Assembly (NCBI GenBank): GCA_964453605.1
Contig: CAYVOI010000001.1
Location: 676,095 to 740,094 of the forward strand
Direction of reading: 5' to 3'
Length of the DNA stretch: 64,000 nt
Source of the DNA: an uncultured Gammaproteobacteria bacterium
GTDB taxonomy: Bacteria > Patescibacteriota > Patescibacteriia > Veblenbacterales > UBA10138
A program made the position numbers and the translations under genes. The notes beneath the pieces are model-generated. The model had not been told where the DNA came from. It worked only from the letters and a program-made list of their open reading frames with translations, and did no database searches. Below are positions 5,601 to 26,402 of this stretch, piece by piece. Each line of letters begins with the position of its first letter. Position 1 is the stretch's first letter.

Positions 5601-6523
5601 AAGTACTTTGGGTTATCTTTAAACCACTTGAGTGTCTGGCGTAAACCTTCAGTCAGGGGTACCTGCGGCTTCCAGCCCAACTCGCGCTCAGCCCGCCGCG
5701 GGCTCAAGGCACTCCGCTTAACATCACCCGGCCGGAGCGGCCCGTACTCCACCTGGGGCACGGTGCCCACTACCTCACCAAACCGCACCACGAGCTCGCG
5801 CACGGAGATGTCACGCCCAGTACTGAGATTATACACACCTGTACCCTGTTGCAGGGCCGCCAGCATACCCTGGGCCACGTCGGTCACGTAAATGTAATCA
5901 CGAGTTTGGTCACCGTGACCATGAATGGTAAGTGGTTGCCCTACGGTGAGTGCACGAGCGAACACACCAACTACCCCACCCTCACCACCCGCACCAGCCC
6001 GCGGGCCATAGACGTTGGCTGGACGCACCACTACAGTAGCGAGCCCCGAGGTTCGGGTGTAGTAGTCAAGGTAACGCTCAATGGTGTACTTTGACAAGGC
6101 ATAGGGTGAACGAGGATCAAGGTTTTCGGTTTCCACGGTCGGAATGGTAGTAGGTTCGCCGTAGACCGCGGCCGAAGAGGTAAAGAGCACCTTCTTCACA
6201 CTCGAGCCAGCTAGAGCGTTAAGCAGATTCAGGCTACCTACAATGTTTACCTCAGCATCGTGCACCGGGTCGGCTTGCGAACGCGGTACGCTCGATTGCG
6301 CCGCCAGGTGGCAAACGTAGGTAGGCTTGAGACGGGCAATTACTGTGCTGAGCTTCGGCGAGCAGACGTCGAGCTTGTAGAACGTAGCCGCCTTGGGCAC
6401 AAAGCCTCGGCGCCCGCTCGACAGGTCATCCACCACGCTCACCTGAAAATGAGCGCGGAGGGCAGCTTCGCAGAGGTGGGAACCTATGAACCCGGCGCCG
6501 CCAGTTATGAGAACGTGTTCCAT
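5597..6523 (-). CDS. NAD-dependent epimerase/dehydratase (UDP-glucose 4-epimerase-like SDR)
   Basis: 'VLITGGAGFIGSHLCE' Rossmann motif, YxxxK 'YALSK', ~308 aa. Start overlaps the upstream gene stop by 4 bp. Confidence 0.8.
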   Translation of the reverse strand: MEHVLITGGAGFIGSHLCEAALRAHFQVSVVDDLSSGRRGFVPKAATFYKLDVCSPKLSTVIARLKPTYVCHLAAQSSVPRSQADPVHDAEVNIVGSLNLLNALAGSSVKKVLFTSSAAVYGEPTTIPTVETENLDPRSPYALSKYTIERYLDYYTRTSGLATVVVRPANVYGPRAGAGGEGGVVGVFARALTVGQPLTIHGHGDQTRDYIYVTDVAQGMLAALQQGTGVYNLSTGRDISVRELVVRFGEVVGTVPQVEYGPLRPGDVKRSALSPRRAERELGWKPQVPLTEGLRQTLKWFKDNPKYL

Positions 6524-13992: not shown

Positions 13993-16900
13993 CTACTGCT
14001 TGGTGATAGTACCAAGGGTTGGCTTACCGTCAACGTACAGTCCAGTGGATGTGTCGAGGAAGTCACCATCTTGGTTAGCATCGTAACCAAGAGCAGCCTC
14101 AGTCACTGAGTACTTGAGGTTACCCAGGGTAGACACTGACAGCGCAAAGCTATCACCACTGGCTACGCTCGTCGCAGTGCTCAGTCCAATGGTCAGGTAA
14201 CGATAGGCACCACCGTTAATGGTAATGCTGCTCGTTAGTGTACCGAAGGCTACCGAGTCACTGGAGCTCACCTTGAGTGAGTTCGCCGTGTAATCAGACG
14301 AGTTCTCGCTCGAAGCGTAAACAGTGTAGCGCGCAGCGGAGCCGGTGTGGGTACCACCATCCGTGAACGAGGCATCGGTCAGGGTAACCTGCTTCGAGCC
14401 GTTGTTCTGGATCTTGAACTGACCAATGTAGGTGTTGGTGGTTACGGTCTGAGTCACCGACGAGGTCGGAGCAAAGGCCGACACCACCACGCCGAACGGC
14501 ACAATGTTGGTGTGGGCAGGGCCGGTGTTGTTCAAGTTGCCACCAGCGTAGGTTGGGGCAGTAGCTGTCTGCACGCCCTTAGCCGTAATGTCGTTACCGG
14601 TCGTCATGTCGAGCTTCATGTAGAAGTCGTCACCGAGCTTGGACACACCTTCGTGGCCGATGTCTGCCTTAGCGTAGATCGTTACCGGCGTACCGGGGTC
14701 GATTGCCGCAGGGAGCAGGTTGTCGGTCGCGGTCCAGGTGTTGTTGCAAGCGTTGCTTGAGCAGGTAGCGAACTGGCTAGCCGTAGCGAATGGATTGGCA
14801 TCCACCGCCGCGCTGCCTACCTGACGGTAGAGCGCTAGGTTCAGAACGTCGTTCTGGTTCAAGCTGGTACCCGCTGCCCTGAGGGTCAGCGAGGTAATCT
14901 TCTGGCTCTCGTACTGAGCGGCCAGCTGGAAGGCGAAGTAGGTGCCACCACTGGTGGACACGTTTACCACCTGGGCAAGCGCCGGCGTAGCGCCGGTGCC
15001 CGTCACCAGCGAACCGGTGAGCGTACCACCTGAGGCTACGGTAATGGTCTGACCAGTACCTGACCCGAAGGTTGGGGTGCTGATCGAGTTACCAGTGTCG
15101 TTGCCAGTGGCAGTGACGTGGGCGGTGTTGCTGGCCACCTTGTAGGTGTGGCTCGTACCGGTGGAGGCAATAACATTACCAACCAGTACCAAAGTTACGT
15201 TAGACGACGTTGATACAATAATGGGGTTGGTGAAGTTAAAGCTCACCGTGTTGGCGTTGGTCGCCGTTGACGAGCTGGTCTGTAGCGGAGTCTTACTGGC
15301 GTCGGCCGCGTTGTACATCCAGAGGTTGTTCACACCGCTGTAGTCCGAGCCTGAGCCCAAGGTGTCCGTCACAATAATGGTAGACACGCGTACGTTTTCA
15401 CCCGAGCTCTGAGCATTGAGCTCAAGGCGGGCGAACTCGACGTTGTTGGTGCCTGCCACCACGGAGGTCGCGACTGGTTGAGCCAGCGTTGACACCTTAA
15501 TGGCAGCGGTCTTGACCGAGCGAGTGAGGCTCGACACCGTACCAACACCCGGGTCTACCAAGTCGTTCGTCACAATGCGCTTAACCTGCGTGACGTCAAA
15601 GGCGTTCACGAAGTAAGCATCGCTCGTAGTGGCGCTGGAGCTGACGGAGACCTCGATGGTCACCACGCTCTTAACGCCGGACTTGATAATAGGGTAGCTG
15701 GAGAGGGTGATGCTGTTCACCGTACCGTTAGCAGCAAAGGTAGAGGCAGCGGCACTGTACACCGTGGAGCCGTCAACCTTTACGTACACCGTACCGGTGA
15801 GGTTGGTGGAGCCAGTGTTCTGGTTCAAACCAAAGCTCACCTTGCGAACTTCCATGTCCTCACCGTTGGCCTGGATGTCGTACTTACCGAGCACGACGCT
15901 GTTAGCACCCGGTACCACGGCCTGGCTCGGGGAGTCAGAGCTGCGGGAGAGGGTCAGCGTACCAGAACCAATGGTCACCTTGTTGTAGGTGCTGGTGGAA
16001 TCACCGATCGGGAAGCTGGTGTCGTTCGAGCCAGCCGTCGGCAGGATGCCGGAGTTGGTCGAGACGCCGCGGATGTCTACATCGTAATCGTTGTAGACAG
16101 TCCACTGGGCAGTGCGGTTCGCACCGTCAATGATAATACCACGAACGGTAAAGTCCTTGGTCTGGCCCTTATCGATCGGGAAGGGGTTAGCCGACAAGTC
16201 GAACCAAACACCCTTGGACATAACCTGAGCGGTAGCGAGCACGGTACCATTCTGTACCAGCTGCATATCCTTCATATCGGTGTCAGCCGCTGTACCATTG
16301 TTGTAGAGCCTGAGGCCGTAGAGCTTCACCACCTCGTTGGAGGAGGTCTCTTGCAGCCTAAACTTGGCTTGCTCCTGCTCGCTGGCAGCATCAACGTTTA
16401 GGGTGATGCCCGAAGCGTTGAGGGGCTGTTCATCAACCGTCACAGCAGCCAGGGAGCTCGAGCCATCTACCACGCTCATGGTGTTACTCGTGAGCGGGAA
16501 GGTGCCGGACACGGTAGCGCCGTTGGTCATAACATCAGCCGCCGAAGCAATGGCGAAGCTGACCGTACCGGTGTAAGAACCGGAGGCGAGGTTCACCTTT
16601 ACCCACACGGCCGTGGTCTGGCCAGCCGATACCATAATGGGGTCGCTGGAGAGGTTCATGATAGCAACGCCATCAGCCCCCAAGGTCGTAACCACGTTGC
16701 CGTAGCGGCGACTATTGGCAAACACCGAGATACCAGACACCTTGCTGTTGGCAAGGAAGCCCATCTTGGTGAGCTTGAGCTGCTTAACGTTGACTGCGCC
16801 GTCGCTTCCGGCAGTGACGTTGAACTTGAGGATAGCGTTGTAGGCGCTACCAGTTGCAATCGTCATGCTGACGGGAGTGTCAGAGGCTAGCGCCACTGAC

Positions 16901-17655
16901 AGCCCGGTGCCAGCACCAGGGGTGATAACTGAAGCACCGCCCGAAACGTTAACCAGGGCCGACTCCTGACCGGTGATGGAAGCACCATCCGGGTAGGCGA
17001 TGTCGGTGGTCACGCCGAAGGTTGAGCTCCTGATCCAGTTAGCGGTCGCGGCTGCGGCCGAGGCGAATGGGCGCCGGGTGCCGGCGCTGATGTAGTACCA
17101 CTGGCTGGGGTTCGAGGCGTAGTTCACCACTGCCCCGGTGGGGTGCATATCAGAGCTGATAGCAGTACCCATCGAGTAGTTGACGAAGAAGGCATCGGCG
17201 ACGTCCACAATGTGCTTGTTCCACATTGGGCCCCAGAGCTTCATGGCCCGGGCTTCGCTGTCGATAGCGCGGAGCTTGCCGCCTGGTTCAACGGCGTAGA
17301 CCTTCGGGTCAGTAGTAATCTTCACGAGCCAGGTACCGGGCCTCATGGTGACGTTGCCACCAATCGGGTAGGACGAAAGCTCAGAGAAGGGAACGGTCTT
17401 CACCGTAGAGAAATCCGCGTACCAGGACATGTAGGTGTTCTGGTTCGGGAAAACAAAACGCTTTGCGCCGTCGAAGTAGTACACGGCGCGGCAGGGGTCG
17501 TTAACACCCGAGCCTACCGGACAGGCCAACTTGATGAGGTCACCGGCCATGGCAGCGGCGGACACTGGCGAAGCCAGCAAGCCACCAAGCCCCAGCGTGG
17601 AAACCGCAGTCAAAGTCGAGACTGCGACGGAGAAAGCTTTCTTGAAATTAGACAT
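13993..17655 (-). CDS. very large (1220 aa) secreted cell-surface protein, Thr/Ser-rich with Ig-like beta-domain repeats
   Basis: Signal peptide 'MSNFKKAFSVAVSTLTAVSTLGLGGLLASPVSAAAMA', then a long low-complexity T/S/V/G-rich sequence typical of adhesin or S-layer-like proteins. Confidence 0.6.
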   Translation of the reverse strand: MSNFKKAFSVAVSTLTAVSTLGLGGLLASPVSAAAMAGDLIKLACPVGSGVNDPCRAVYYFDGAKRFVFPNQNTYMSWYADFSTVKTVPFSELSSYPIGGNVTMRPGTWLVKITTDPKVYAVEPGGKLRAIDSEARAMKLWGPMWNKHIVDVADAFFVNYSMGTAISSDMHPTGAVVNYASNPSQWYYISAGTRRPFASAAAATANWIRSSTFGVTTDIAYPDGASITGQESALVNVSGGASVITPGAGTGLSVALASDTPVSMTIATGSAYNAILKFNVTAGSDGAVNVKQLKLTKMGFLANSKVSGISVFANSRRYGNVVTTLGADGVAIMNLSSDPIMVSAGQTTAVWVKVNLASGSYTGTVSFAIASAADVMTNGATVSGTFPLTSNTMSVVDGSSSLAAVTVDEQPLNASGITLNVDAASEQEQAKFRLQETSSNEVVKLYGLRLYNNGTAADTDMKDMQLVQNGTVLATAQVMSKGVWFDLSANPFPIDKGQTKDFTVRGIIIDGANRTAQWTVYNDYDVDIRGVSTNSGILPTAGSNDTSFPIGDSTSTYNKVTIGSGTLTLSRSSDSPSQAVVPGANSVVLGKYDIQANGEDMEVRKVSFGLNQNTGSTNLTGTVYVKVDGSTVYSAAASTFAANGTVNSITLSSYPIIKSGVKSVVTIEVSVSSSATTSDAYFVNAFDVTQVKRIVTNDLVDPGVGTVSSLTRSVKTAAIKVSTLAQPVATSVVAGTNNVEFARLELNAQSSGENVRVSTIIVTDTLGSGSDYSGVNNLWMYNAADASKTPLQTSSSTATNANTVSFNFTNPIIVSTSSNVTLVLVGNVIASTGTSHTYKVASNTAHVTATGNDTGNSISTPTFGSGTGQTITVASGGTLTGSLVTGTGATPALAQVVNVSTSGGTYFAFQLAAQYESQKITSLTLRAAGTSLNQNDVLNLALYRQVGSAAVDANPFATASQFATCSSNACNNTWTATDNLLPAAIDPGTPVTIYAKADIGHEGVSKLGDDFYMKLDMTTGNDITAKGVQTATAPTYAGGNLNNTGPAHTNIVPFGVVVSAFAPTSSVTQTVTTNTYIGQFKIQNNGSKQVTLTDASFTDGGTHTGSAARYTVYASSENSSDYTANSLKVSSSDSVAFGTLTSSITINGGAYRYLTIGLSTATSVASGDSFALSVSTLGNLKYSVTEAALGYDANQDGDFLDTSTGLYVDGKPTLGTITKQ

Positions 17656-18317
17656 GTATGAAGTATTCCTTTATGCAGGGTGCGGGTAAGAGTATAGGGT
17701 TAGGACAAAGCTCAAGCTCTACCCGTCGCTTTACTCCACACGTACCCTGTAGTTTTAAGTCTGGAGCTCATCCTCTCGTGGCTACCAACCTGTTACAGCT
17801 GGGCCACCTCGACCTTTCGGTAGAGGACTATCCGACTCACGTTCCTGAGTTTGCACAAACCATAGGTGACAGCGTACGCCAAGCTCCCTGAACCTGCACA
17901 CACGGGGGCGCTCTTCAGGTGGCAACACACGGAGTTCCGTTCTTCATCAAGCCGCCCATGGGTGATTGAATCCCGCCTTACGACAGGACAACCTTCACCA
18001 GGGCCGCCCGCCGGCCAGACTGTTTGGCACGAAAGTAAAATTAGTACTTCGTGCCACAGCTATCGTTCTACATATAGAACGTGTGGCGGGCAGGTGCCTG
18101 GTGAGAGGGCTAAATAACCCAGCCAGATAGAGAAGGAACCTGTGGTACAGCTCACCTTTGTGCTCCCTCGAGGTGGTAGCTCGCGGCAGCTTACGGGTAA
18201 CGCTGGTACACTACGGTTGCGCTAGAAAAGAACGTGAGGGGGGTCGTCTGACCCCGTGGCTATGCTCAAAACGCTTCAAGCAGAACCACGGAAGCGGACC
18301 TTGGCCGCCGCTAACAA

Positions 18318-19448
18318 TTACTGCGGTGTGGGCTGGTTTGTGTTCGGAGTAGTAGTATCGGGTATAGTGGTCGGTACATTGGCTCCTGCCCCACCACTCG
18401 TAGTGTCTGGCGTAACTGCTGGGGCAGTGTTCTGGTCAGTAGCGCCTTGCACCTGCCCAGGCTCAGTCGCCGGCGCTTCGGCTTTATCAACCGCCGCTTC
18501 ACTCTTTACAGTAATGTCTTCACTCTCCTGCACCTTCTGAAGTGCCAGGCTAAATTCTTTCTTCTGCACCAAGTCCCTGGCCTCGGTCAGCGTCTTCTTA
18601 GCCTCAAGGGTAGCCACCTGTACAGGGACAATAGTCTGCCTAGCTTCTAACACCACGCGTGGGCTGGGTTTGGATTCAGGAAAGGTTGCTAGTTTGCTGT
18701 CCACGCCGTCGAGCTTAGCTTCTACTTTAGTAATCTGGGATTCAAGCCTGGTCGCCACCGCCGCGGGCAGCACGCCGTTGGCGCCGCTCTGGTGCGCTGC
18801 TACCAAGAACGCTACTGCTTGTGAAGAGAGCTTATCAGTAAGTGCCACGGCAATACCGTAAGGAACTTGAGCTGCGGTCTCAGGGTGCACCCGAGCCAAC
18901 CCGTGGAAAAGTCGCTCTACCTCTTCGTCGTACTGGAGCGCCAGCGAACTCGTCGGCTGGGTAGCTTGGAGCGCGGCTTCAGCAAACCCCAAGTCAACGT
19001 TGTAGTCCTTAAGCAAGCTAGCTTGAGTCACTAGGCTGCTCGGCGTAACGCTACCCACTTCGTCCAATCGGCGAGACGCCAGGGTCAGGTGGTACAGCCC
19101 CTGCGATTCAGGCGTAGCTTGTAGCGCCAGTTCAACGCGCTCCACTGAACGCTTCATGGGGTACCAGAAACTGCCCGGGCCACTGGTCTGGAGCGCATTA
19201 GCGAGCGGTGCCCAAGCAAACACCACTGCCAGCACCGCCACCGTCACAGGTACCAAGGGGAGTGGTGCTAAGCTCAAACGTACGTTAGCCAACTGCAAGC
19301 GGAAACTTTCACCAAACGTAAACTCCCGCTGTGTTTGGGTAGCGGTTACGTTGAGTAACTGTTCACGAGCCTGCTCACGCCACAAAGCCGGCGCCCGGCG
19401 TAGCGTGTGCAGTTCCTGCAGCTGGTGTATGAGGTTTCGGTCTGACAT
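18318..19448 (-). CDS. membrane protein downstream of ECF sigma, a putative anti-sigma factor (DUF5667-like) with a Pro/Thr-rich C-terminus
   Basis: Single TM 'LAPLPLVPVTVAVLAVVFAWAPL' after an ~80-aa cytoplasmic N-domain. Its start is only 8 bp from the upstream sigma gene stop (19448 vs 19457). Confidence 0.5.
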   Translation of the reverse strand: MSDRNLIHQLQELHTLRRAPALWREQAREQLLNVTATQTQREFTFGESFRLQLANVRLSLAPLPLVPVTVAVLAVVFAWAPLANALQTSGPGSFWYPMKRSVERVELALQATPESQGLYHLTLASRRLDEVGSVTPSSLVTQASLLKDYNVDLGFAEAALQATQPTSSLALQYDEEVERLFHGLARVHPETAAQVPYGIAVALTDKLSSQAVAFLVAAHQSGANGVLPAAVATRLESQITKVEAKLDGVDSKLATFPESKPSPRVVLEARQTIVPVQVATLEAKKTLTEARDLVQKKEFSLALQKVQESEDITVKSEAAVDKAEAPATEPGQVQGATDQNTAPAVTPDTTSGGAGANVPTTIPDTTTPNTNQPTPQ

Positions 19449-19456
19449 GCGAAAGT

Positions 19457-20011
19457 TTACTCAGTGGTGCTTAAAACGTTCTTGAGCTCTTGGAGCGCTC
19501 GGTGGAGTATAACGCGCGTAGCGGCTCCGGTCTTACCAATAATAGTTGCTATCTCCTGGGGCCGTAGCCCTTCAACGTAAGCCAGGATCACTACTTCTTG
19601 CCACTCTGGCTTAAGCCTAGTGAGAGCTACTTCTATTTCCTGTAAGCTCACGCGGTGCTCAGGGCTCAAGGCCCTGCCCTGGCTAACATCAGTTACGTGT
19701 AAAGCCTCATCAAGTGGTAAGGTGTTCTGCTGGCTCCGGTAGTGGTCAGCGATCAAGTTCCTGGCCACCTGGTAGAGGTAAGCCCGGAGGTTCCGTATGC
19801 CCCCACCTTCTGGCTTAGTCAGGTACTGCCAGACCTTGAGAAAAAGGTCTGAGGTAAGGTCCTGGGCTACTTCTTGGGTCCTGACGCGGAACGATACAAA
19901 CCGGTACAGCTGGTCCACGTAGCTATCGTACAGAACAGCAAAAGCCTCCTGGTCGCCATGCCGAATTTTTAACAGTAGTACCTCTTCTTCAATCTTGCGT
20001 TTCAAGTACAT
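19457..20011 (-). CDS. RNA polymerase sigma factor, sigma-70/ECF family
   Basis: Region 2 'FAVLYDSYVDQLYRFVSFRVRTQEVAQDLTSDLFLKVW'. Region 4 HTH 'LRPQEIATIIGKTGAATRVILHRALQEL'. Confidence 0.85.
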   Translation of the reverse strand: MYLKRKIEEEVLLLKIRHGDQEAFAVLYDSYVDQLYRFVSFRVRTQEVAQDLTSDLFLKVWQYLTKPEGGGIRNLRAYLYQVARNLIADHYRSQQNTLPLDEALHVTDVSQGRALSPEHRVSLQEIEVALTRLKPEWQEVVILAYVEGLRPQEIATIIGKTGAATRVILHRALQELKNVLSTTE

Positions 20012-20251
20012 ATATGGAGACGTGGTATGTGGAAAATCGTTACACTACGTGAGTGCTACTTTAACTATTTTCCCCTACTTTGGCAAGTATAAAAATAATG
20101 AAATTAAGCCAAAATACTACCCTATAAACTAACCAAATCGGCAAAATGCCATTCTTAATATATTTATACAATGATTTATATAAAAACAGCGGAAATTTTA
20201 AGAATTCATGAGCTTAAATGCAATAAAAATATAATACATGTATACAATAAT

Positions 20252-20279
20252 TTGACAAAAGTATACATTATTCTATACT
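20252..20279 (+). promoter_or_regulatory. near-consensus sigma70-type promoter (TTGACA, 16-nt spacer, TATACT) inside the AT-rich island and upstream of the HTH gene
   Basis: TTGACA at 20252-20257 and TATACT at 20274-20279, ~65 bp upstream of the ATG at 20346. Confidence 0.45.
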
Positions 20280-20345
20280 TTATGTATCTAAATTGAATAA
20301 ATTTATCCAGCAGGGATTAACTACACTAAAACTTTCTAACCACCG

Positions 20346-20618
20346 ATGAACTCCCCTATCAGAATTTCTGTCAGTGAAGCTTCCAGACTCTTTGGCTTAT
20401 CCACAAAAACCATTCGCCAAGCTATTAAGCTGGGCACCATAACCTATGTGGTCGTAAGGGGTAGGTACAAGCTGAACTTTGAGAGTGTGCTCAGCTGGTC
20501 CCAAAGCTCCCCCCGCCGGCAGCACGCTATGGAACGGGGTGGCTTGGGGCAGTATGTGGATACGTGGAAAATCAGGAACCGTAAGTACTCCCCCCGCCCA
20601 CCACAAGAAAACACTTAA
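20346..20618 (+). CDS. small helix-turn-helix DNA-binding protein (HTH_17 / excisionase-MerR-like)
   Basis: 'ISVSEASRLFGLSTKTIRQAIKLGTI' is a classic HTH. 90 aa. Convergent with the DGR RT. Confidence 0.6.
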   Translation: MNSPIRISVSEASRLFGLSTKTIRQAIKLGTITYVVVRGRYKLNFESVLSWSQSSPRRQHAMERGGLGQYVDTWKIRNRKYSPRPPQENT

Positions 20619-20622
20619 CCTG

Positions 20623-21729
20623 CTATAGCAAAAACTGGCGCTTTAAGCTTCGGCTCAAGCGATAAGCACTAGCGTGAGACAGCACGCCGAGGTACGAACT
20701 TAGCAATTGCCCAAAGCTAGTTTTGGTAATGGCTCCTCCACGCCAGGCCACCAGGCGTTGGTGCAGCTTTCGTAGCATGCGTGCCTTGGTTTTTGTGCGT
20801 AGCACGCGGCAGTGCGGCAGCACAACGTAACCTAGAAAATCAATACCCTGGCCGTACTTTCGGAGGATAACCTTCTTTTGGTGGAGTTCAAGCTTAAGGC
20901 CTTCCCTCAAAAACTCAGCGAGCTTTGGTACTAAGCTTTCGAGGTACTCTTTGTTGTCTGCCAGTATCACAAAATCATCGCAGTACCGCACGTAGTGCCT
21001 CACCTTGAGCTTGTGTTTTACAAACTGGTCAAGCTCGTTCAAGTAAATGTTCGAGAATAGCTGGCTGGTCACATTTCCTAAGGGCAATCCCTTGCCTGGA
21101 CTGGTTTCAAAACTTCCCACCACTTGACGAATAAGCCAGGTAGTGCTAAGGTCATATGATTTATACGCGATAAGCTCAAGCAATATCTTATGGTCAACCG
21201 TATCAAAGAATTTCTTGACATCGCACTTCAGAGCATAGCTAGGTTTTTGCCTGTTACGGCTTACCTGCCACAGGAAACGTTCCAAGCGGGCTACCCCGCG
21301 GTGGGTGCCTTTATCAATACGGCAAGAGTAGGAGTCGAAAATAAACTTCCGTTCGTACAACGGGTACAGTACGCGAAACAGGGCTTGGTGCACTACCCTG
21401 TCTCGCACGCTGGCCTTGTGGATATGTCGTAGCTTAGGGTCGGTAATGTAAAACGAAGCGTAAGCGGTGTTGCGGTAGGTTTTGCTGGTAAGCTCCTGGT
21501 GTAATTTAAAAAGGTTGTCCTCAAGGCCGAATTCAAACACCTGCACATCAGGCTTGCTCCGCTTGCCACGCCGAAACTCGCGCCAGGCTAAAAGCAGGTT
21601 AGGCAAACTAACAACCCGCTCAAATAAACCACTATGCCCAACACCATTCCCCAAAGCCCACCCCTCGCCACCGACCATGTTGATGTTCCCTTGGTTCATA
21701 CGATTTACCAATTTTACAAGCTTCTGCAC
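20623..21729 (-). CDS. diversity-generating retroelement (DGR) reverse transcriptase. The start is probably an internal Met near 21678.
   Basis: RT motifs 1-7. 'LPLGNVTSQLFSNIYLNELDQFVK' carries the DGR-specific SQ in motif 4, where group II introns have SP. 'YVRYCDDFVIL' catalytic motif. A cognate TR and VR lie next to it. Confidence 0.9.
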   Translation of the reverse strand: MQKLVKLVNRMNQGNINMVGGEGWALGNGVGHSGLFERVVSLPNLLLAWREFRRGKRSKPDVQVFEFGLEDNLFKLHQELTSKTYRNTAYASFYITDPKLRHIHKASVRDRVVHQALFRVLYPLYERKFIFDSYSCRIDKGTHRGVARLERFLWQVSRNRQKPSYALKCDVKKFFDTVDHKILLELIAYKSYDLSTTWLIRQVVGSFETSPGKGLPLGNVTSQLFSNIYLNELDQFVKHKLKVRHYVRYCDDFVILADNKEYLESLVPKLAEFLREGLKLELHQKKVILRKYGQGIDFLGYVVLPHCRVLRTKTKARMLRKLHQRLVAWRGGAITKTSFGQLLSSYLGVLSHASAYRLSRSLKRQFLL

Positions 21730-22014
21730 GGGTACATCAAGCTCTTCCCCAAAACCGAGAAGTACTCACTGGGCGCGCGTATTGAACATTTTACCCTGGA
21801 TACACTCGAGCTCTGCTTAAAGGCAGCCTATGCGTCTAGGGCAAACCGTTCAGTGCTCCTGGAGGAGCTCGACACGAAGGTGCAGGTGCTGAAAACGCTC
21901 GTCCGGCTGGCGCACGAAATTAGGGCGCTCGATGATGCTAAGTACTTGGGCCTGCAAGAACGGCTACAGGAGATGGGCAAAATGGTTGGCGGGTGGTTAA
22001 GATACAGCAGGTAA
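21634..22014 (+). CDS. avd: Avd-like accessory variability determinant (four-helix-bundle, 23S rRNA IVS protein family). The start may be a non-ATG codon near 21688.
   Basis: 'YQFYKLLHGYIKLFPKTEKYSLGARIEHFTLDTLELCLKA' matches the four-helix-bundle 'FPKxEKYxL' signature. It is followed by a strong terminator. It lies on the opposite strand from the RT, TR and target. Confidence 0.65.
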   Translation: MPNTIPQSPPLATDHVDVPLVHTIYQFYKLLHGYIKLFPKTEKYSLGARIEHFTLDTLELCLKAAYASRANRSVLLEELDTKVQVLKTLVRLAHEIRALDDAKYLGLQERLQEMGKMVGGWLRYSR

Positions 22015-22019
22015 AATAA

Positions 22020-22049
22020 GCACCCCCCGAAATGCCGGGGGGTGCTTTT
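22020..22049 (+). terminator. intrinsic terminator: a 10-bp GC stem (gcaccccccg/cggggggtgc) plus a TTTT run
   Basis: Starts 6 nt after the avd TAA stop. The same hairpin lies immediately 3' of the TR on the minus strand. Confidence 0.75.
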
Positions 22050-22068
22050 AGCATTACCGCGAGAACTT

Positions 22069-22184
22069 CCAGGGGACGAAGCCCGTTGTTGTTCCAGTGA
22101 TTACCCGCGTCGTTGTAGTTGACGTTCGCCAAGCCACCGTTGTCGGAGTTACCGCCGATAAGACGGCTACCACGGCTCTCAAAA
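22069..22184 (-). repeat. DGR template repeat (TR). The sense strand is minus, and it is rich in AAC codons in the target frame.
   Basis: ~116-bp near-identical copy of the 3' end of the target gene. It differs from the VR almost only at TR adenines. Confidence 0.9.
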
Positions 22185-22458
22185 ATTGTTTGCTCCCGCC
22201 CATAGACACCAGGGCTCGATTCGTATGCGAAACTCGCCCTTGTATTTTATGCTGTGGCAGCCCTGAAAGGTTTCGGACATCCACACTAGGAGCAAACAAG
22301 CAGTGCTCTTGGTAATGCCGCGATACGCTCTCCGCACCCGTGAGTTTGGAGACCCTGATCGCAAGTATCCTAAGGATTTCGGCGACAGCGATCCGTAAAC
22401 CACTGTGCATTAGCCTACTCTCAACTCTACCTTAGCTCATTTTTGAAAAATAATAAAG

Positions 22459-22497
22459 GCTTGAGAAAATTGCTTCCCAAGCCTTTTTTTCCAAGTT
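22459..22497. terminator. bidirectional hairpin terminator (aggcttg...caagcct) with T-runs on both sides, ~45 nt downstream of the target-gene stop
   Basis: 7-bp stem. TTTTTT follows on the plus strand and TTATTATTTTT on the minus strand. Confidence 0.5.
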
Positions 22498-22520
22498 CCA
22501 AAAGGAACCATTGTTTTCAA

Positions 22521-22536
22521 TCCGCCAGTTGGCGGA
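22521..22536 (-). other. short GC hairpin (tccgcc-agtt-ggcgga) immediately 3' of the VR/stop. It matches the cruciform/hairpin position seen at DGR targets.
   Basis: 6-bp stem with a 4-nt loop, 5 nt after the TAA at 22541-22543. Confidence 0.5.
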
Positions 22537-22540
22537 CAAG

Positions 22541-23482
22541 TTACAGCACTGCCAGGGGACGAAGCCCGAAGCTGTCCCAGTGAAGACCCGCGTCGTTGTA
22601 GTCGACGCTCGCCACGCCACCGTCGCCGGAGCTACCGCCAATAAGACGGCCACCACGGCTCTCAAAATACTCCTCTCGCCATTCCCAGGTGTTGGTTTTG
22701 CCATCGTCCTTGCGGGGCAAATCCAGGCACAGCTGAGGAATGACGTTGGCCTCGATCTCCTTTTCGAGACGGACTTGTTCAGGCTTGAGCTTGAGAAGTT
22801 TGGCCACGGCCGGCTTAACGTGTTGTTCCCATTCATTGGGTGAAACGCTGAAGCGAGACGAACGCGGACCTTGGGTGTAATCAAGAATGGCACCAGCCGA
22901 ACGCAAACCTGCGATGATGGAGCCGAGGAATTTTCCGTCGTCCTCATACATCTGCCGTCCATTGTCGTATACAGGCTTGCACCTGGTATCAATCAGTACC
23001 GTAATGCCACCAAGCCCATAGGCCGGATTGGAAACCACGAGCTCACCAGAGGTATTGGCCAAGAAAAGTTTGCCCTTGTCGGACACCTCGTAGTACCACT
23101 TCTCGGGCTTCACCTTCCAACCCGGAAAGTTTGCGGCCTGTGCCATGAGCACCGCCGGCAAAAACGCCACGTCGAGGCCAAGCTTTTGCCACTCGGCTAT
23201 CTGCCGACGACCGTAGCGCTTGAGTGTTTGGGCGAAGGCCGTGAGGTCAAACTCGGCACCGAAGAACAGCCAATGGCGTTTGAACTCCCGCAGCAGCAGG
23301 GCCAGCATCCAGTTGGACACTACCACCGTGTTGTGGCCGATGATGGTATCACTCACGCGCTTGGCGAGATCAGGCACTGCGCGCATCTTTTTGAAATGTT
23401 CTCGCTCGACACCATGCTGTGCCAGCACTTCGAACGTCGACGTTATTTCGGAGAGTGGTATCTCCTTGACTAAGTTCCCCAT
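22541..23482 (-). CDS. DGR target (variable) protein. The C-terminal ~39 codons are the variable repeat, VR 22551..22667.
   Basis: C-terminus '...VDYNDAGLHWDSFGLRPLAVL'. The TR-encoded version is 'VNYNDAGNHWNNNGLRPLEVL'. Strong SD (AAGGAG) before the ATG at 23482. No obvious signal peptide. Confidence 0.85.
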   Translation of the reverse strand: MGNLVKEIPLSEITSTFEVLAQHGVEREHFKKMRAVPDLAKRVSDTIIGHNTVVVSNWMLALLLREFKRHWLFFGAEFDLTAFAQTLKRYGRRQIAEWQKLGLDVAFLPAVLMAQAANFPGWKVKPEKWYYEVSDKGKLFLANTSGELVVSNPAYGLGGITVLIDTRCKPVYDNGRQMYEDDGKFLGSIIAGLRSAGAILDYTQGPRSSRFSVSPNEWEQHVKPAVAKLLKLKPEQVRLEKEIEANVIPQLCLDLPRKDDGKTNTWEWREEYFESRGGRLIGGSSGDGGVASVDYNDAGLHWDSFGLRPLAVL

Positions 23483-24368: not shown

Positions 24369-26402
24369 TTACCTACCCTCTCGCATGAACCCGAGGAAGA
24401 ACTGCAGGCCGTTGAAGCACTCGAACAGGCACACCTGCAGCCACTTCAGTGGATTCCACAGGTGGCGGTACCACTGGCACCAGACCTGGCTGATGTAGGT
24501 TCGCGATGAAACGCGGGCGAAGGGGTTGTGCTTGTAGAACCACAGCGCGAGCGACGACGGCACCCGCACCTCGGGCACCTCAGCCTTGAAACGAGCGTAG
24601 AGCGCACGCAGCTCGGAAACCTTCACCAGGCGCCAATCGACCACCCCCTTACGGGCACGGGCGACCAGCTCGGTGAGGCGCTCTTCCGCCGCAGGAATAG
24701 GCCGGCTCCTCAGCCACACCTCTTGGAACTGCAGGTAGAGCTTCACGAGCTCCCGCAGGCGGTAGGCAGCGGCGCGCGCCCTCCCCCACCAGAACGGCAG
24801 CCAGGCTTCGCGAGGGAACCCCGGCCTCCGCTCGTCGCGGTAGCGCACGGTCCAGAAACCGCAGTTCATGGGATGCAACCCCTCGATACGTGCAGCGTAC
24901 AGGTACCAGGCGAAAAACCACAGCTGCGCCCAGTAGTGCTTGCGGTTACCGCGCCAGCCCTTGAGCACCTGAACCATGTGGTCGGTAGAGTAGAACCACC
25001 GCCAAATGTCACGGTGTGTCTGTGCAAGGTCTGCAGCCGACATACTTTGGGGCAGTACGGCCACGTGGTTTGAGTCGTAGGTGTTAAAATCAGGATGCAT
25101 CCAACGACCCTCCTTCCACCACGTTTGGTGATCTTCCGACCCTGGCAGCGGGGTAAGAATATAGAACGAAGCTGAGTTGAAGCCGATAGCCTGAAGCTGG
25201 CAAATGTCCTCACGAATGCTGGCACGCGTGTCAAATTCCAAGCCAATGATATATCCGGCGTGGCACGTCATGCCTAAGGCATTGCAGTGTTTGACCAGCG
25301 ACTCATACTCCTTCACTTGGTTCTGGTACTTACCCTGCGCCTTCAGGTTCTGCTGGTTCATGGTCTCCAGGCCGAAGAATACCTGGTTGCAGCCGGCGCG
25401 GGCTGCCAACTGGAAGAAATCACTGTTCTTCCCCTTCCTGGCCGCCAGGTCAGCCTGCATCATGAACGTAAAGGGAATGCCCTCGGCCTCGCGGAGAGCG
25501 GCCAGGCCAGCGAACAGTTCGCGCCAGCGCGGGTTGCGGGCCAGGTTGTCGTCGGTGAAAAAACAGTGGCGAACGCCGACGGCGTGGTAGTTGCGGCGGA
25601 CAAACTCTACCACCTGGTGCGGGTCGCGGCAGCGCATGGTGTTCCCCTGCACGTTTATGATGGTGCAGAACTTGCAGGCGAACACGCAGCCGCGGCCGGT
25701 ATCAAGGGTACTGAACGGTGAAGCGAACCCCTTGAGATCAGACTTGGTAAGCCTGGGGATGGGCAAATTGGTGAGGTCGGGCGTCTCTTTCAGGAAATCG
25801 TAGAGCGGCTGAGCTTGTCCACGTACGACATCGGCGATAATGTTCGGTAACCGGTCGCCTTCCACCTCTCCAGCCACGAGCGTAATACCGCGATCCATAG
25901 CTGCCTTGAGGTCGTCCGTTAGGCCGATCATCGCCAGCATACCGCTGACGTGAAACCCCCCAATGAGCACGGCAATGCCGTGGGGCAGGAACTGGGCCGC
26001 AATATCATTAGCCCGTGGGTACTGGTTGGTTTGCACGCCCACGAACATGACAATCGCTTTCACGCCACGGCGGCGCGACTGCCTGATGATATCCCGCACC
26101 GGCACACGCTGAATTGCCTCGTCGATGAGGCGCACGTTGAGCTGTAGGCCTTGAAAAAACGGGTACCGGGTGAGATTACGCGTGAGGCAACCCATTTGGG
26201 TAAGGGTGTTACTGCGGATGACCCCGATACGTGTACGAATGGGGTAGCCGTCATCGGTGTAGTTGGTGCAGCGCACCAGCGTAATATCGAGCGTGTCGAC
26301 GCCGTACCTGTGCGCGGTCGTATTTGTCTGCAGCACGTGGTTCATAACTCCTCCTTTCATCAGAGGTTTAACGGTTGATATTGTATTGTCAATTATTTGC
26401 AA
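24369..26402 (-). CDS. B12-binding domain-containing radical SAM protein (class B). The start is probably an internal Met.
   Basis: 'GRGCVFACKFCTI' CxxxCxxC radical-SAM cluster motif after an N-terminal Rossmann-like B12-binding region ('GVKAIVMFVGVQTNQY...LIGGFHVS'). Long C-terminal extension. Confidence 0.8.
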   Translation of the reverse strand: MQIIDNTISTVKPLMKGGVMNHVLQTNTTAHRYGVDTLDITLVRCTNYTDDGYPIRTRIGVIRSNTLTQMGCLTRNLTRYPFFQGLQLNVRLIDEAIQRVPVRDIIRQSRRRGVKAIVMFVGVQTNQYPRANDIAAQFLPHGIAVLIGGFHVSGMLAMIGLTDDLKAAMDRGITLVAGEVEGDRLPNIIADVVRGQAQPLYDFLKETPDLTNLPIPRLTKSDLKGFASPFSTLDTGRGCVFACKFCTIINVQGNTMRCRDPHQVVEFVRRNYHAVGVRHCFFTDDNLARNPRWRELFAGLAALREAEGIPFTFMMQADLAARKGKNSDFFQLAARAGCNQVFFGLETMNQQNLKAQGKYQNQVKEYESLVKHCNALGMTCHAGYIIGLEFDTRASIREDICQLQAIGFNSASFYILTPLPGSEDHQTWWKEGRWMHPDFNTYDSNHVAVLPQSMSAADLAQTHRDIWRWFYSTDHMVQVLKGWRGNRKHYWAQLWFFAWYLYAARIEGLHPMNCGFWTVRYRDERRPGFPREAWLPFWWGRARAAAYRLRELVKLYLQFQEVWLRSRPIPAAEERLTELVARARKGVVDWRLVKVSELRALYARFKAEVPEVRVPSSLALWFYKHNPFARVSSRTYISQVWCQWYRHLWNPLKWLQVCLFECFNGLQFFLGFMREGR

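Follow-up and report, generated by a model that had tools for sequence, protein, structure and literature searches.

A covarying leader RNA upstream of the template repeat in a diversity-generating retroelement with inverted avd: a candidate counterpart of the phage Sp RNA

The mechanistic model of diversity-generating retroelements (DGRs) rests on one phage element, in which the priming RNA lies downstream of the template repeat (TR). This element, from the Bordetella phage BPP-1, is ordered mtd-avd-TR-brt and carries the spacer (Sp) RNA downstream of TR (Handa et al. 2018; bioRxiv 10.1101/2023.10.23.563531). From its start, Sp runs through an Avd-binding stem-loop (Sp3-33) to a primer strand (Sp47-56) that is paired with TR117-129 and has the priming A56 at its end; a 2-nt linker then leads to Sp59-70, which pairs just upstream of TR and forms the “cPRT Stop”, and beyond it come a short stem-loop, adenosines, the single-stranded thumb ring and a bRT-binding stem-loop (bioRxiv 10.1101/2023.10.23.563531). 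TR is looped out between the two adjacent duplexes, and priming uses an internal 2'-OH (bioRxiv 10.1101/2023.10.23.563531). The survey that accompanied this work spanned 40 nt upstream and 100 nt downstream of TR, and a permuted arrangement is not mentioned there (bioRxiv 10.1101/2023.10.23.563531). The RT-10 motif, a structured RNA associated with DGR reverse transcriptases (RTs), has likewise been proposed to prime reverse transcription (Weinberg et al. 2017, PMC5737381). DGRs are especially abundant in the Candidate Phyla Radiation (CPR), where they are mostly of Architecture B3, TR-(avd)-RT, a layout defined by an avd on the reverse strand with no other accessory gene and accounting for 90% of the CPR DGRs catalogued by Wu et al. 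(2018; NAR 46:11; PMC5758913). DGR components on different strands require separate transcription units, and no RNA element upstream of TR is described in the searchable text of that paper (Wu et al. 2018, PMC5758913). Here we describe a DGR from a 64,000-nt stretch of an uncultured bacterium that the GTDB places in Patescibacteriota (contig CAYVOI010000001.1 of assembly GCA_964453605.1, positions 676,095 to 740,094 of the forward strand), referred to below as the window and numbered from its first letter. The main outcome, apparently new, is a conserved, covarying leader upstream of TR, with an organization that is both Sp-like and retron-like.

On the evidence of its sequence, the locus is apparently an intact DGR of the CPR/Patescibacteria type with Architecture B3 (target-TR-(avd)-RT). 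The components on which the rest of the argument depends are as follows.

22541-23482, minus strand: DGR target gene, 313 aa, with the variable repeat (VR) at its 3' end
22545-22667, minus strand: VR, a direct repeat of TR at the 3' end of the target gene
22062-22184, minus strand: TR, with adenine-specific mismatches to VR
21634-22014, plus strand: avd, 126 aa, inverted relative to TR and RT, with Pfam and NCBIfam matches
20623-21678, minus strand: DGR reverse transcriptase, RVT_1, likely start ATG 21678, in an open reading frame (ORF) that is open to 21729

TR and VR align over 123 nt with 87% identity, and the downstream copy is taken to be TR and the upstream copy VR because the differences fall at adenines of the downstream copy (17 at TR adenines, minus strand). 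A DGR is defined by differences that fall specifically at adenines of the template. Differences at other bases are few and lie mostly at the extreme 3' end, beyond the predicted cDNA start. VR ends 2 nt ahead of the stop codon of ORF 22541-23482 and encodes the ~40 C-terminal residues of the target protein, for which sequence searches of Pfam, NCBIfam and PDB gave no match and no known domain. The 3' 16-mer of TR has two sites in the 64 kb, one in TR and one in VR, and both repeats share a GC-rich GGGCTTCGTCCCCTGG, which may mark a 3' boundary like that of the initiation of mutagenic homing (IMH) site. The RT matches RVT_1 (E 6.5e-22), and LGNVTSQ and YCDD can be read in its translation, the DGR clade being marked by [I/L]GxxxSQ in motif 4 and by YxDD; its best NCBIfam match was a group II intron RT, below the cut-off, in libraries that hold no DGR-specific RT model, and its relatives all adjoin TR/VR pairs. 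The first-pass annotation had left it open whether the Avd-like ORF at 21634-22014 was a misleading overlap. A profile search places it above the cut-offs of two curated families, Pfam bAvd PF22296 (E 1.9e-17, 64.2 bits against a cut-off of 40, profile positions 6-106 of 107) and NCBIfam NF033474 DivGenRetAVD (80.4 bits against a cut-off of 80, profile positions 2-104 of 104), and it is a genuine Avd, with which a PDB sequence search gave no useful match. No better minus-strand accessory ORF with family support was found in 21730-22130. Since an Avd match is present and a rival minus-strand ORF is absent, the earlier observation of a target, TR and RT on the minus strand, with avd on the plus strand between TR and RT, is confirmed.

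To set this layout among its relatives, 506 RT relatives were confirmed in contigs taken at one genome per species, and the best 80 were fetched (46-63% identity), all of which are on CPR/Patescibacteria-type contigs of metagenome-assembled genomes; 75 of the 80 loci have upstream sequence. An Avd homologue lies opposite the RT strand and abuts the RT 5' end in 74 of these 75, and avd on the RT strand was found in none (phmmer, Avd HMM and tblastn). One locus (L001) seemed at first to be without avd, which is present there behind a masked N-run. TR, with adenine-specific mismatches, adjoins the avd stop codon in 64 loci, with a gap of -30 to +62 nt. The order and strands read from the window coordinates are those by which B3 is defined, the target being upstream on the RT strand in both, and no architectural difference from the catalogued type was seen. 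The arrangement had been described as unusual at first; it is a genuine and conserved variant, already known and the norm in its lineage, and adds nothing new as an architecture. As a separate observation, one relative (L035, 5539-6004) keeps the leader described below (E 3.8e-33) together with an intact-looking RT, with avd reduced to a 24-aa C-terminal remnant, and may be either a decaying element or an Avd-independent variant.

What looks new lies directly 5' of TR, in the non-coding gap between VR and TR, which has a median length of 330 nt among the related loci. The elements of this region in the window are given below.

22455-22486, minus strand: terminator-like hairpin and T-run predicted to end the target mRNA (terminator scan, 14 pairs, tail ATTATTTTTC)
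22429-22434, minus strand: -10 element TAAGGT of a putative DGR-RNA promoter, family consensus TGnTATAAT
22186-22424, minus strand: structured leader of the proposed DGR RNA, ~240 nt, non-coding, directly 5' of TR
22381-22415, minus strand: P1, leader stem-loop with a UUACGG-type loop
22321-22361, minus strand: P2, leader stem-loop with a UUACGG-type loop
22300-22320, minus strand: J2/3, single strand with an invariant A at 22304
22288-22299, minus strand: P3 5' strand, pairing with the P3 3' strand
22254-22284, minus strand: P4, leader helix
22241-22253, minus strand: A-rich single strand AGCAUAAAAUACA, almost invariant
22211-22240, minus strand: P5, leader helix
22186-22197, minus strand: P3 3' strand, abutting the TR 5' edge
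22051-22067 with 22302-22318, minus strand: 3' partner AGTTCTCGCGGTAATGC of the J2/3 strand GCATTACCAAGAGCACT (inverted repeat I9), closing the TR 3' edge

An iterated nhmmer profile found the leader upstream of TR in 61 of 65 loci (E down to 1e-52), and its DNA sequence is conserved across loci whose RTs share only ~50% identity. In L013, L038, L047 and L039, where VR is distant or on the opposite strand, the leader is still beside TR. For 28 full-length copies aligned with MAFFT (alignment A1), RNAalifold gave a consensus structure of 47 pairs, 45 of which show compensatory double changes, and the window forms 45 of the 47. The proportion of alignment cells that are paired was 93.8%, compared with 65.0% in shuffled alignments and 40-48% when the partners were slid, and the covariation score was 0.83, compared with 0.27 and 0.13-0.18 respectively; none of 500 shuffles reached the observed values on any measure. 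Searches of Rfam 15, at gathering thresholds on the whole window and at E<=10 on 21600-22560, gave no match above chance level, and nothing relevant to an upstream DGR RNA or to the B3 architecture was found in the searchable literature beyond Wu et al. (2018) and Handa et al. As far as checked, the leader is therefore an RNA family absent from both.

Upstream of the first leader helix, by ~15 nt, is a conserved TGnTATAAT (columns 11-20 of A1), with T in 26 of 28 sequences, A in 27, the final T in 27 and the upstream G in 20, which would serve as an extended -10 promoter. The terminator-like hairpin (22486->22455) separates this putative leader promoter from the target gene. P1 and P2 (22321-22415, minus strand) carry the same conserved loop motif across loci, UUACGG or UYACGG, which points to a protein-binding site present twice; in the phage system Avd forms a pentamer. 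A 118-aa ORF also runs through the leader and TR (22054-22410, minus strand), in a frame that differs from the VR frame. It has no family match and lies over covarying RNA helices, so that gene prediction could mistake it for a hypothetical protein. Library searches gave no family support for this ORF or for three further ones, and no conserved small ORF was found in the VR-TR gap, where BLASTP matches came only from the VR and TR flanks that had been included.

Two strands of the leader pair with the two edges of TR. On the 5' side, P3 abuts the repeat, with TR/VR homology starting 2-7 nt past the last P3 base in 19 of 21 loci. On the 3' side, the J2/3 strand of the window, GCAUUACCAAGAGCACU (22318->22302), pairs with AGUUCUCGCGGUAAUGC (22067->22051), and this pairing is kept in nearly all relatives with different sequences (for example GAGGAGA/UCUCCUC, GCAAGAC/GUCUUGC, AGAAAAAG/CUUUUUCU and CUAGACAC/GUGUCUAG). 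Duplexes formed within a locus had a mean of -14.5 kcal/mol, compared with -9.5 for those formed across loci, and none of 10,000 permutations was as low. All 28 sequences have an invariant A at the end of the J2/3 strand (22304 in the window), and the P3 strand begins 2 nt further on. When the loci were aligned opposite this A, mismatches on the 5' side were sparse and nearly all at TR adenines; from +1, the position 3' of the base opposite the invariant A, 50-80% of positions were mismatched, with all substitution types. The last adenine-type change in the window is at 22068 and the first non-adenine change at 22064, and these bracket T22065, the partner of A22304.

Beyond the TR 3' edge, the region of the avd stop codon is occupied by a hairpin that had been noted at the outset.

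22018-22029/22036-22047, both strands: 12-bp GC hairpin at the TR/avd junction, perfect stem with 9 GC, 6-nt loop

The first-pass annotation was right that a GC hairpin lies at this junction, although its size and position differ from those reported (12 bp at 22018-22047, not 10 bp at 22020-22049). Only 0.5% of random windows of the same size match its stem score, and folding gives it z-scores of -4.0 (minus strand) and -5.3 (plus strand). The consensus scan called a terminator on the minus strand (13 pairs, tail ATTTTACC); on the plus strand the same stem is followed by the tail TTTAGC (4 U counting the stem end), for which the scan made no terminator call. A T-run follows the hairpin on both strands, giving the form of an intrinsic terminator, a GC-rich stem-loop and then a U-run, and the plus-strand run agrees with the earlier suggestion that the hairpin is able to end avd. 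Among the relatives, 35 of 65 loci have a junction hairpin that scores within the top 5% of random windows (~3 expected by chance), and 20 have one within the top 1%; of the 39 stems with 6 bp or more, 24 lead into a T-run on the TR strand. Stems range from 5 to 17 bp and loops from 3 to 9 nt, the sequence is not conserved, and many of these hairpins show the A-tract/stem/T-tract form typical of bidirectional terminators. Because stem, loop and sequence vary freely and the T-runs are mostly on the TR strand, the hairpin is read as a shared terminator, and from its sequence it is probably a bidirectional intrinsic terminator common to the DGR RNA (minus strand) and avd (plus strand).

With a rough probability of 0.65, we take this locus to be a B3 DGR with four transcription units and an upstream DGR-RNA leader that does an Sp-like job. 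The target mRNA would be the first unit, ending at the terminator 22486->22455. A discrete, non-coding minus-strand DGR RNA of ~410 nt would start from the extended -10 promoter (~22434) and consist of the ~240-nt leader, TR, a 17-nt segment pairing back to the leader, and the GC hairpin and U-run (22047->22018) as its terminator. The third unit would be avd, on the plus strand and convergent on the hairpin at 22018-22047, and the fourth would be RT, on the minus strand and expressed from a promoter inside avd, with the 5' ends of avd and RT overlapping. By analogy with the phage system, the RT-Avd complex may bind the leader, cDNA may be primed from the 2'-OH of the invariant A (22304) or at a nick, and TR would be copied from ~22066 until synthesis stops at helix P3, at 22186.

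Several points weigh against this reading. The predicted promoters and transcript ends rest on consensus matches, and the -10 element of the window (TAAGGT) is weak. The support for the helix between J2/3 and the TR flank is alignment-free, coming from own-locus and cross-locus duplexes and from the homology boundaries, since MAFFT shifted the register in the mini-construct alignment (A2) meant for column-wise covariation; RNAduplex picked a different J2/3 partner in 4 of 21 loci. The likeness of the leader to BPP-1 Sp is one of order and topology and not of sequence, with no match to the RT-10 motif of Rfam in 21600-22560 even at E<=10. Furthermore, ~40% of the relatives are without a clear junction hairpin, so that read-through into antisense avd and RT is possible in some of them. 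This last point also favors a different view, put forward in the first-pass annotation, in which TR and RT are co-transcribed and the region antisense to avd is the spacer RNA, with the GC hairpin as its first structural or priming element. The essential Sp RNA of the Bordetella phage does lie between TR and brt, and the hairpin is indeed the first structure 3' of TR. However, the U-run is on the TR strand, where the scan calls the hairpin a terminator; the sequence, stem length and loop of the hairpin are not conserved; and the covarying primer-like and stop-like helices come from the upstream leader and not from downstream sequence. Conservation at the RNA level in the antisense-avd region is confounded by Avd coding constraint, the structure comparison covering the leader and the TR edges. 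We consider co-transcription with such a spacer quite improbable, and the claim that the antisense-avd spacer is the priming RNA is probably wrong.

The hairpin could instead be mainly an Avd-binding stem-loop of the DGR RNA, and not, or not only, a terminator. For 207 of 278 Avd-containing DGRs, Handa et al. propose that a stem-loop immediately 3' of TR binds Avd, and those reported are commonly of 9 bp and come from diverse taxa including CPR (bioRxiv 10.1101/2023.10.23.563531), which counts among the points against the four-unit reading; the window hairpin, with 12 bp, starts 20 nt past the end of TR/VR homology. Among the relatives, no conserved loop or flipped-out base pattern is seen, the hairpin is absent in many, a T-run follows it, and P1 and P2, with their conserved UUACGG-type loops, are better candidates for a sequence-specific protein site. 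This makes a mainly Avd-binding hairpin unlikely, if less so than the spacer just discussed, and the two roles are compatible and could coexist. The position of the leader between the target stop codon and TR, and the promoter-like motif that makes up part of its 5' end, could be taken to mean that it is a 3' untranslated region or regulatory element of the target, or a promoter or operator for TR, and lies outside the DGR RNA. The leader adjoins TR even where VR and target are remote or on the opposite strand, though, a terminator parts it from the target in the window, ~240 nt of covarying helices far exceeds the needs of a promoter, and two of its strands pair precisely with both TR edges, all of which leaves this a very improbable account. 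The chance that the Avd-like ORF is an accidental overlap, with the true accessory gene elsewhere, is negligible: only the odd strand is in its favor, and it is refuted by the profile searches, with two curated family thresholds passed, Avd homologues (E down to 1e-30) at the same position in 74 of 75 loci, and no competing ORF with support.

Returning to the four-unit reading, its last two units meet at the 5' ends of avd and RT, where the following features lie.

21634-21678, both strands: G-rich avd/RT 5'-5' overlap, PP in Avd and GG in RT
21711-21740, minus strand: promoter-like site TTGATG-18-TAAAAT, sigma-70-like, upstream of RT and inside avd; consensus match only

As had been pointed out before, the avd 5' end overlaps the start of the RT ORF. 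The maximal ORFs share 96 nt (21634-21729), and with the starts that fit the homologues (avd ATG 21634, RT ATG 21678) the overlap is 45 nt. Alignment of the N-termini, and of the DNA between conserved Avd and RT anchors, sorts the junctions of the relatives into two groups, one with ATG start codons 10-25 nt apart and another, which includes the window, with both frames open across a G-rich tract (GGG in RT, PPP in Avd). The overlap in the window corresponds, in degenerate form, to the poly-G or other simple-sequence repeat of its relatives. A -10-like TAAAAT/TATAAA on the RT strand (21711-21716 in the window) lies ~25-35 nt upstream of the RT start in the window and its relatives, and corresponds to codons of the conserved Avd N-terminal motif YxFYK. 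One stretch may thus serve both as Avd coding sequence and as RT promoter, but the conservation of the -10 inside avd is uninformative for a promoter because the YxFYK coding constraint confounds it.

The repeats at this junction are an observation in their own right. A G-run of 8-14 nt sits exactly in the divergent avd/RT junction in 30 of 73 related loci, and (GT)n, (CT)n or (CCTGT)n is found there in 9 more; across all 835 kb fetched, 30 of the 36 G/C runs of at least 8 nt are at an avd/RT junction. Examples with poly-G are L002 (~5985-6000), L004, L011, L021 and L051, and the window keeps only a G-rich remnant at 21640-21680. In L021 the run is assembled as 10 G, a length that leaves the flanking avd ATG out of frame; 9 or 12 G would bring it into frame. 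The junction repeat, present in many relatives but not in the window, may be a slipped-strand ON/OFF switch for avd and RT, and hence for the whole mutagenesis machinery, or else the homopolymer pattern is an assembly error. A search for phase-variable DGRs found nothing in the searchable literature.

On the target side, one further hairpin was considered.

22521-22536, minus strand: 6-bp GC hairpin TCCGCC-AACT-GGCGGA, 5 nt past the target stop codon, top 1.5% of random windows

With its tetraloop, it is similar to the target-side inverted repeat of the phage DGR and some other DGRs. As a family feature, a VR-side hairpin was rejected: of 58 related loci, only 4 have one that reaches the top 5% of random windows.

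Convergent on the RT 3' end is a 90-aa ORF (20346-20618, plus strand) with a weak match to the excisionase-type helix-turn-helix family HTH_17 (23.6 bits, below the cut-off of 27). It is preceded by an AT-rich stretch of ~300 nt (20040-20340) and by the best promoter-like site of the region, TTGACA-16-TATACT at 20252-20279. Judged from translations alone, the neighborhood (13993-20011 and 24369-26402) includes a 1220-aa repetitive surface-type protein with a signal peptide, a sigma-70 family ORF followed by a 376-aa ORF, and an ORF of 677 aa that carries a CxxxCxxC motif. On reading these neighboring translations, for which no family-library search was made, we noticed no genes for phage structural proteins next to the DGR.

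If the leader is the permuted equivalent of Sp, it would explain how cDNA is primed and stopped in DGRs with an inverted avd, and it would predict the exact nucleotides involved (A22304, a start near 22066 and a stop at 22186). It would also define a minimal RNA for reconstituting or engineering these compact systems. Such a leader RNA would escape any survey that reaches only 40 nt upstream of TR and 100 nt downstream.

Compared with BPP-1, the window shares an RT, Avd, a TR/VR pair and adenine mutagenesis, and in both systems two adjacent TR-bracketing helices come from one contiguous RNA segment, in which a primer strand with a terminal A is joined by a 2-nt linker to a stop strand of ~12 nt. 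The order continues alike, with a short stem-loop, then an A-rich single strand and then another stem-loop, and the window leader also opens with stem-loops with conserved loops, like the stem-loop at the start of Sp. By this analogy, A22304 would be at a place equivalent to the priming A56. The segment is 3' of TR in BPP-1, whereas in the window it is 5' of TR; BPP-1 has avd on the TR strand and upstream of TR, whereas the window has it on the opposite strand, between TR and RT; and a terminator appears to follow TR directly in the window, unlike BPP-1. RT-10, similarly, lies between TR and RT in BPP-1, and what the window has 3' of TR, in place of a priming RNA between TR and RT, is the hairpin and U-run and then antisense avd. 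As priming in BPP-1 is from an internal 2'-OH, a transfer of the module from one side of TR to the other is chemically plausible, and we infer by analogy that the leader may be a circular permutation of Sp with a retron-like topology. We give even odds to the fuller proposal that the B3 DGR RNA is circularly permuted relative to that of BPP-1, as a hitherto undescribed, leader-primed, stand-alone transcript with a terminator shared with avd; a repeat switch in many relatives is a further possibility.

Retrons offer the other comparison. Their msr-msd RNA has a structured non-template part 5' of the template, a helix to sequence 3' of the template, and a branch nucleotide that uses its 2'-OH. 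The 5' structured RNA and the helix closing the 3' side of the template are shared with the window leader, for which a branch chemistry of this kind is putative. Retrons differ in that their RT is of a different clade and acts with no Avd, their template is not a gene-derived repeat, and there is no adenine mutagenesis and no retrohoming. If the leader does the job proposed for it here, the RNA topologies of DGRs and retrons would be linked.

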